Origin: Escherichia phage ECO95 1-6-1
Sequence record: OR845698.1
Strand: one strand, 5' to 3'
DNA length: 1,762 nucleotides
Shown here: piece by piece, positions 1-450 of the stretch
Layout of the letters: each line of letters begins with the position of its first letter
Numbering within the stretch: the first letter of the stretch is position 1
Notes under the pieces: generated by a model
The model's input: the letters and a program-made list of their open reading frames with translations, nothing else
Told to the model about the DNA's origin: nothing
Databases searched by the model: none
Position numbers and translations under genes: made by a program

Positions 1-33
1 ATTCTGAATATAGTATAGTGGTGTTGTAGATTT

Positions 34-450
34 TTATTTTTTACAGAGGTAATATCGACGGAATACCAAAGCAAAATCTGAAGACTCTTCCAACTCGCAA
101 CTCCCATTCCCGGCAGAAAGAGAAACATTTAATAAAGGGATTTCAACAAACTCCTCAGAGTCCCTGTTCATATCCTCCCAAATAGTAGCCTTAAGGGAAG
201 ATTCTCGGATATTTGATGGTTCTGGTCCTTCTGGATATCTCATATCACCAACCCCTGAGCTTAACCATTCAGGGCGTACTTTTAAGGCATTAGCTAACTC
301 AACCATCTTTCTTGTCCCATTGGTTTTGCCTGAGGACATTTTTTGGATAGCTGGTTGCGATATTCCTACCTTTTCTGCCAACTGAGCTTGCGATAGCCCA
401 GATGCAGACATGGCGGCGTTAAGTCTGTCAGCAAAAGTTTTCATATGCAT
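34..450 (-). CDS. cI: cI-like prophage repressor (HTH_XRE N-terminal domain; C-terminal LexA/S24-type domain apparently truncated after the Ala-Gly cleavage-site motif)
   Basis: 138-aa ORF from the six-frame track. Residues about 18-37 (GLSQAQLAEKVGISQPAIQKM) form a typical XRE/Cro-CI helix-turn-helix. The C-terminal segment EIPLLNVSLSAGNGS resembles the start of the S24 autopeptidase domain, including an Ala-Gly pair, but the ORF stops about 20 residues later with no G-x-S-M or Lys catalytic motifs. It is divergently oriented from a cro-like gene across an operator region, as in lambdoid phages. Gene symbol is given by position and function analogy, not by identity to lambda cI. Confidence 0.75.
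   Translation of the reverse strand: MHMKTFADRLNAAMSASGLSQAQLAEKVGISQPAIQKMSSGKTNGTRKMVELANALKVRPEWLSSGVGDMRYPEGPEPSNIRESSLKATIWEDMNRDSEEFVEIPLLNVSLSAGNGSCELEESSDFALVFRRYYLCKK

Follow-up and report, generated by a model that had tools for sequence, protein, structure and literature searches.

A cI-type repressor gene cut short at a break in homology within a lambdoid immunity region

The immunity region and its shortened repressor gene

The stretch of DNA analysed here, referred to throughout as the window (1,762 nt), holds a lambdoid immunity and early-right region in which divergent cI and cro genes are arranged around a tripartite operator and are followed by cII and O. Judged by its sequence, which is that of Salmonella phage S.Kent 1-2-1 (OR850878.1; locus L001) from base 46 onwards, the window can be assigned to a lambdoid Salmonella phage as its immunity region. 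The 104-nt gap between cI and cro contains three 14-bp palindromes of the form ATAAC-N4-GTTAT at positions 456–469, 480–493 and 505–518 (3 matches against 0.07 expected by chance), an arrangement like that of lambda- and 434-type regions. This right operator (OR) is intact, and a PR-like promoter at 493–521 overlaps its third site.

To the right of the operator, a cro-like gene (555–779, plus strand) encodes a 74-aa protein that matches YdaS_toxin (Cro-like; E = 2e-17) and P22_Cro and is identical in the related loci L001–L004. It is followed on the same strand by cII (910–1203; 97 aa), which covers positions 1–91 of the 91-position Phage_CII profile (E = 9e-10), by a 53-aa ORF (1236–1397) listed among the ORFs of the window, and by the gene for replication protein O (1384–1762; Phage_rep_O, E = 5e-36), of which the N-terminal 126 residues are present before the window end cuts it. 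The first ori iterons occupy 1725–1762, and iteron repeats are found in S.Kent 1-2-1. As far as the window reaches, cro, cII and O look intact, as the initial annotation had judged them to be.

Rfam and tRNA scans of the window returned nothing above threshold. A strong terminator-like hairpin on the minus strand (1149–1179), with a stem of 12 pairs and a T-run after it, is located within the 3′ end of cII, at what we take to be the site where the lambda antisense oop RNA terminates, and a sub-threshold Rfam match to the prophage sRNA AgvB covers 1147–1203 on the minus strand (19.6 bits against a gathering score of 56). The relative L006 carries the same three OR sites together with a further pair about 1.35 kb past the cI stop. 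These two ATAAC-N4-GTTAT operator-like sites (L006 12065–12103) lie on the far side of bstA and are the probable left operator, OL.

The repressor gene occupies positions 34–450 on the minus strand and, as first described, encodes a cI-like protein of only 138 aa. Its Pfam matches are confined to HTH families, the best being HTH_3 over residues 16–63 (262–405, minus strand; E = 1.4e-8), and residues 8–70 resemble the N-terminal domain of the phage 434 repressor (E = 1.4e-9). The comparison with Pfam models that had been proposed for the 138-aa product gave no match to Peptidase_S24 (PF00717) even at E ≤ 1. In the full-length relative P0001 (237 aa), PF00717 spans residues 106–230 (E = 6.7e-17), and about 30 of these ~125 residues are left in the window product (native residues 106–135; 46–135, minus strand), in keeping with the earlier reading of its C-terminal part as the start of an S24 domain that includes an Ala-Gly pair.

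Cleavage and catalytic residues were placed in an alignment of twelve family members with LexA and lambda cI. Ala113-Gly114 (codons at 109–114, minus strand), the predicted RecA-stimulated self-cleavage site, shares its alignment column with LexA Ala84-Gly85 and lambda cI Ala111-Gly112; Gly114 is invariant in the alignment, and Cys-Gly replaces Ala-Gly in some relatives. In full-length relatives, including those otherwise identical to the window, the G-x-S-M nucleophile is Ser154 (GQSM), aligned with LexA Ser119, and the general base, about 37 residues past the Ser, is Lys191, aligned with LexA Lys156. The 138-aa product follows the native sequence through residue 135, which is 19 residues before Ser154, and then reads Cys-Lys-Lys and stops; both catalytic residues lie beyond the break and are therefore absent, and the ORF indeed ends before either motif, as had been noted. 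Of the features of an autocleaving repressor, the product has the HTH domain and the Ala-Gly pair, together with the linker and cleavage loop, and lacks the Ser and Lys of the catalytic dyad and a complete S24 domain, including the beta-barrel core. The gene can thus be assigned by descent to the HTH-S24 repressor family, its product being a fragment of a member.

The full-length gene and the break after codon 135

Between positions 46 and 1762, the window shows 0 differences in 1,717 nt from S.Kent 1-2-1, and likewise 0/1,717 from two IMG/VR viral contigs (2923282131_000003 and 2724679269_000003; 42.4 kb and 35.8 kb). In each of the three independent full-length references for this stretch (L001, L006 and L007), the same gene encodes 237 aa, and this 237-aa repressor (cluster P0001) continues ...FRRYYLKKMGVPESAAKLVRVSGQSMEPT... 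past the break in all three. Comparison with full-length cI homologues, which had been suggested as a way to locate the breakpoint, places it after codon 135, between window positions 45 and 46 and at an A7 tract; codons 136–237 are gone. DNA homology stops at 45/46, or at 35/36 if a 3-nt gap is allowed, in which case 36–42 (ATTTTTT) can be aligned to the native T7/A7 tract, and the megablast match of S.Kent 1-2-1 spans 36–1762. Along the cI sense strand, the sequence is ...TATTACCTC AAAAAAA TGGGCGTTCCAGAG... in the references and ...TATTACCTC TGT AAAAAA TAAAAATCTACAACACC... in the window. The wild-type cI sequence at the junction is ...CCTCAAAAAAATGGGCGTTCC..., that corresponding to window 30–60 is CCTCAAAAAAATGGGCG, and a probe for the cI 3′ half and bstA, absent from the window, is ATGGGCGTTCCAGAGAGCGCTGCAAAATTAGTTCGGGTAAGCGGTCAAAGCATGGAGCC.

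To the left of the break lies an orphan AT-rich flank (1–45) with no homology to S.Kent 1-2-1, which on the cI sense strand reads TGTAAAAAATAAAAATCTACAACACC.... Its GC content is 22%, compared with 43% in 46–450, bearing out the description of the ORF as ending in an AT-rich stretch. The flank supplies the three non-native codons Cys-Lys-Lys (37–45) and the TAA stop (34–36), and none of the three minus-strand frames over window 1–63 holds S24-like sequence, in agreement with the initial annotation, which had found no frame that continues the domain.

The repressor family is uniformly about 230–240 aa long with an S24 domain and is not one that natively lacks this domain, as had been allowed for. 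Among the best 120 homologues listed, 113 are 222–241 aa with PF00717 and 3 more carry S24 behind a shortened N-terminus, so that 116 of the 120 have the domain; the four short homologues without it are three NCBI 'partial' calls (P0019, P0029 and P0070) and one A7-tract frameshift product (P0022). The 90%-identity cluster has 92 members from many Salmonella serovars, and nearly all of those listed are 224–237 aa, the spread in length among listed members being due only to the start codon called. We interpret the 138-aa form as a secondary truncation of a 237-aa HTH-S24 repressor gene.

These comparisons leave little room for two explanations that the initial annotation had offered. A naturally short repressor, cleaved in trans or controlled by an antirepressor, would fit the retained Ala-Gly pair, and short HTH-only prophage repressors under antirepressor control are known in Salmonella, for example those of the Gifsy type; but in nucleotide sequence the gene matches codons 1–135 of the 237-aa gene without a difference, the only homologues of similar length among the best 120 are 'partial' calls or a frameshift product, and neither the exact 138-aa product nor a 136-aa product was found among about 15 billion proteins. 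Because of the family lengths and the identity to the 237-aa gene, we reject a native short form, the least credible of the readings considered. It is also highly improbable that the gene is intact apart from a frameshift or sequencing error in its A7 tract. Such a change has a precedent in two Logan contigs (L003 and L004), in which a one-base deletion in the same A7 tract yields a 146-aa product ending ...YYLKKWAFQRALQN; there, however, the rest of cI follows in another frame as a 120-aa ORF with GQSMEP, whereas in the window the adjoining 35–45 nt have no similarity to cI in any frame. With downstream cI sequence missing in every frame, a frameshift pseudogene was rejected: DNA homology itself is lost, not just the reading frame, and the structure is therefore a junction rather than a frameshift. 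Even taken together, a frameshift and a naturally short repressor account for a very small share of the probability.

In the two Logan contigs, A6 stands in place of A7 (L003, about 2650–2686; L004, about 1168–1204) at the position equivalent to window 36–45, the same codon as the break. Because L004 has further homopolymer indels, in a T-run at window 339 and in bstA, these A6 frameshifts may be read errors rather than signs of a mutational hotspot.

The unmatched flank and the nature of the junction

The nucleotide collections behind the flank searches cover the Salmonella pan-genome thinly; within them, blastn of window 1–60 or 1–48 gave nothing beyond chance against 50,697 phage records and 72,556 plasmids or against 5,426 complete E. 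coli genomes. The exact 20–24-mers GAATATAGTATAGTGGTGTTGTAG, TGTAAAAAATAAAAATCTACAAC, ATTCTGAATATAGTATAGTG and AAAATAAAAATCTACAACACCAC had 0 matches in IMG/VR, GTDB species representatives and JGI metagenomes, and these negatives are valid for exact matches because a control k-mer from adjacent cI retrieved exactly the three expected viral contigs. A blastn-short search of the flank against 84 related loci (1.19 Mb) gave no match longer than 11 nt. Exact k-mers of the flank were likewise not found in the 35–47 kb viral contigs of the same phage, which excludes an internal rearrangement (inversion or deletion) of that phage.

The lack of any flank match in plasmids, phages and E. coli argues against an IS or transposon end of a kind common in enterobacteria. 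Read along the cI sense strand, the foreign DNA starts with TGT, which is a weak hint only of an IS or transposon end; a second junction and any target-site duplication would lie outside the window. To our knowledge, the flank bears no convincing likeness to the ends of Tn5, Tn10, Mu, Tn7, IS1, IS10, IS26 or IS30, nor to adapters or FRT/pKD priming sites. Site-specific integration at a T-rich core is unlikely, as the extra ACA beside the shared ATTTTTT misfits a precise crossover. The flank could be rare accessory DNA.

The region into which full-length cI runs is itself variable. In S.Kent 1-2-1, a 307-aa homologue of the abortive-infection defence protein BstA (L001 1692–2615, minus strand; PADLOC E = 1.7e-124) is encoded directly downstream of cI, whereas L002, whose immunity region is 98% similar, carries different cargo after cI at 2073–3364, consisting of a 178-aa ORF and a 252-aa ORF with DUF1828 and PDC-M24B-like matches. 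Because BstA in one locus corresponds to other cargo in the second, the slot downstream of cI reads as an exchangeable defence-cargo site, as for BTP1 (PMC8585504). Previous work placed bstA downstream of cI, with which it is probably co-transcribed, and identified the cI-to-N interval as a hotspot of mosaic diversity (Owen et al. 2021, PMC8585504). By its position relative to these loci, the window junction falls at the edge of a known cargo-exchange site, though 102 codons into cI.

We favour a real junction with foreign DNA, giving a poorly repressing product, and put its probability at roughly 0.6. Counting against this reading, just 45 nt of foreign DNA are visible, at the extreme edge of the window; the unmatched flank and the absence of the exact product from ~15 billion proteins also weigh against it. 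The edge position and the unmatched flank also lend weight to a contig-end or chimeric-read artefact, in which the source has an intact 237-aa cI and the last 45 nt are spurious, whether through a chimeric read, a tip left unclipped or foreign DNA in the sample. The right end of the window falls exactly at the end of an 18-nt ori iteron, TATCCCTCAAAACAGGGG, an identical copy of which follows 47 nt on (L001 4688–4772), and the end of an exact repeat is where a de Bruijn-graph contig is expected to end. This coincidence suggests that the window is a whole small assembly contig, stopped at graph branch points; only 45 nt separate the junction from the end of that apparent contig, and an artefact is therefore a serious rival. 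In addition, a sequencing read would be longer than the foreign DNA that can be seen, the rest of the window matches three references at 100% identity, the flank is unmatched in every collection searched, and the break falls at an A7 homopolymer that is mis-called or shifted in other short-read assemblies too. Against an artefact, signatures of adapter, vector or fold-back are absent from the window, in which a weak 12-nt imperfect inverted repeat was all that emerged, and a real disruption of the same cI cluster exists on 5 contigs (P0125). Little can be concluded from the lack of the 138-aa product in protein collections, because PGAP-style pipelines emit no pseudogene proteins and the same absence is expected for a real allele. 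The overall pattern fits a contig that runs briefly into an unresolved insert, or else a chimeric or tip artefact, and we regard the artefact as the less likely of the two.

P0125, which belongs to the P0001 cluster, is a 94-aa Salmonella protein in which a foreign N-terminus, MMMDKGCLGDSNCVK, is joined to cI from about residue 159 to the end. The longest of its contigs is 7,781 nt, and its sequence marks it as a separate lesion in this repressor, independent of that in the window and at another codon.

Predicted repression and relation to known systems

If the junction is real, it most likely arose recently through insertion of, or replacement by, foreign DNA at the variable cargo site just past cI. 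Such an event would have joined cI, after codon 135 and at the A7 tract, to an unrelated AT-rich sequence from which the repressor gains Cys-Lys-Lys and a stop. In repressors of this type, the C-terminal domain provides dimerisation and the pairwise cooperativity that fills OR1 and OR2 and stimulates PRM, and induction works since the freed N-terminal fragment cannot hold the operators. By analogy with lambda, 434 and LexA, the loss of the dyad would make self-cleavage impossible, and without the C-terminal core the product would neither dimerise nor bind cooperatively to the three OR operators. With residues 1–135 plus Cys-Lys-Lys, it exceeds the inactive N-terminal cleavage fragment (1–113) by no more than 22 native residues, and similar behaviour is therefore expected: it would act much like the fragment freed on induction. 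The truncated allele most likely represses poorly, and such a null or weak allele would show as a clear-plaque or lytic variant, or else persist only in a prophage that has a further defect elsewhere. A narrower version, in which an uncharacterised mobile element or cargo cassette, with the flank as its terminus, inserted in the cI A7 tract, with the repressor lost and defence cargo possibly swapped, is unlikely. The initial annotation had proposed a deletion or insertion junction that destroyed the protease domain and left a non-inducible or cryptic prophage; a destructive junction is the best supported of its options, with 100% identity as far as base 46 and none beyond it, but loss of repression, seen as clear plaques or unstable lysogeny, is more likely than a non-inducible prophage.

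A real junction could also have left a product that still confers immunity, acting as an SOS-non-inducible (ind-minus-like) repressor under which the prophage would be locked in. In favour of this, the HTH domain is undamaged, as are the PRM/OR region and the three operators, and lambda cI N-terminal fragments are able to repress when over-produced. However, the N-terminal domain here is 434-like, and the 434 N-terminal domain on its own has a far lower affinity for operators than the dimer has; natural induction depends on the failure of the N-terminal fragment alone to hold repression; and cooperative binding and PRM autoregulation need the C-terminal domain. Residual immunity would be a minority outcome to which we give very little weight, and a poorly repressing allele at a real junction remains the preferred reading.

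Set against S.Kent 1-2-1, the window is nucleotide-identical over codons 1–135 of the repressor and the OR-cro-cII-O′ region (46–1762), but it lacks codons 136–237, with Ser154, Lys191 and the S24 core, and has 45 nt of unrelated DNA in their place. With the phage 434 repressor, lambda cI and LexA it has in common the 434-like HTH domain and the aligned Ala-Gly site; unlike them, its product lacks the catalytic dyad and the C-terminal dimerisation and cooperativity domain. Disabled repressor genes are commonplace in temperate phages and prophage remnants, and what lies here is no new kind of system but an ordinary broken (or mis-assembled) known repressor gene. P22 delta-c2, in which deletion of c2 renders the phage obligately virulent (PMC8585504), and clear-plaque c mutants similarly combine a disabled repressor with an otherwise intact early region, whereas the lesion in the window is a junction with foreign DNA rather than a clean deletion or point mutation, and its phenotype is one that we infer. 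In the BTP1-type region, as in S.Kent 1-2-1, bstA is found downstream of cI (PMC8585504); in the window, by contrast, this position is replaced from inside cI onward.

In annotation, the appropriate label is that of a truncated (pseudo)gene of a 237-aa HTH-S24 repressor; a new class of short repressor is not called for. Should the junction be an artefact, it cautions against drawing biological conclusions from the outermost few dozen bases of a short contig. If it is real, this copy of the phage is predicted to lack stable, SOS-responsive lysogeny, which bears on its labelling as 'lytic' or 'temperate', and if the event also removed or displaced the OL region, control of leftward early transcription would change too. 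A real junction would, moreover, be a further case of turnover at the cargo hotspot past cI.
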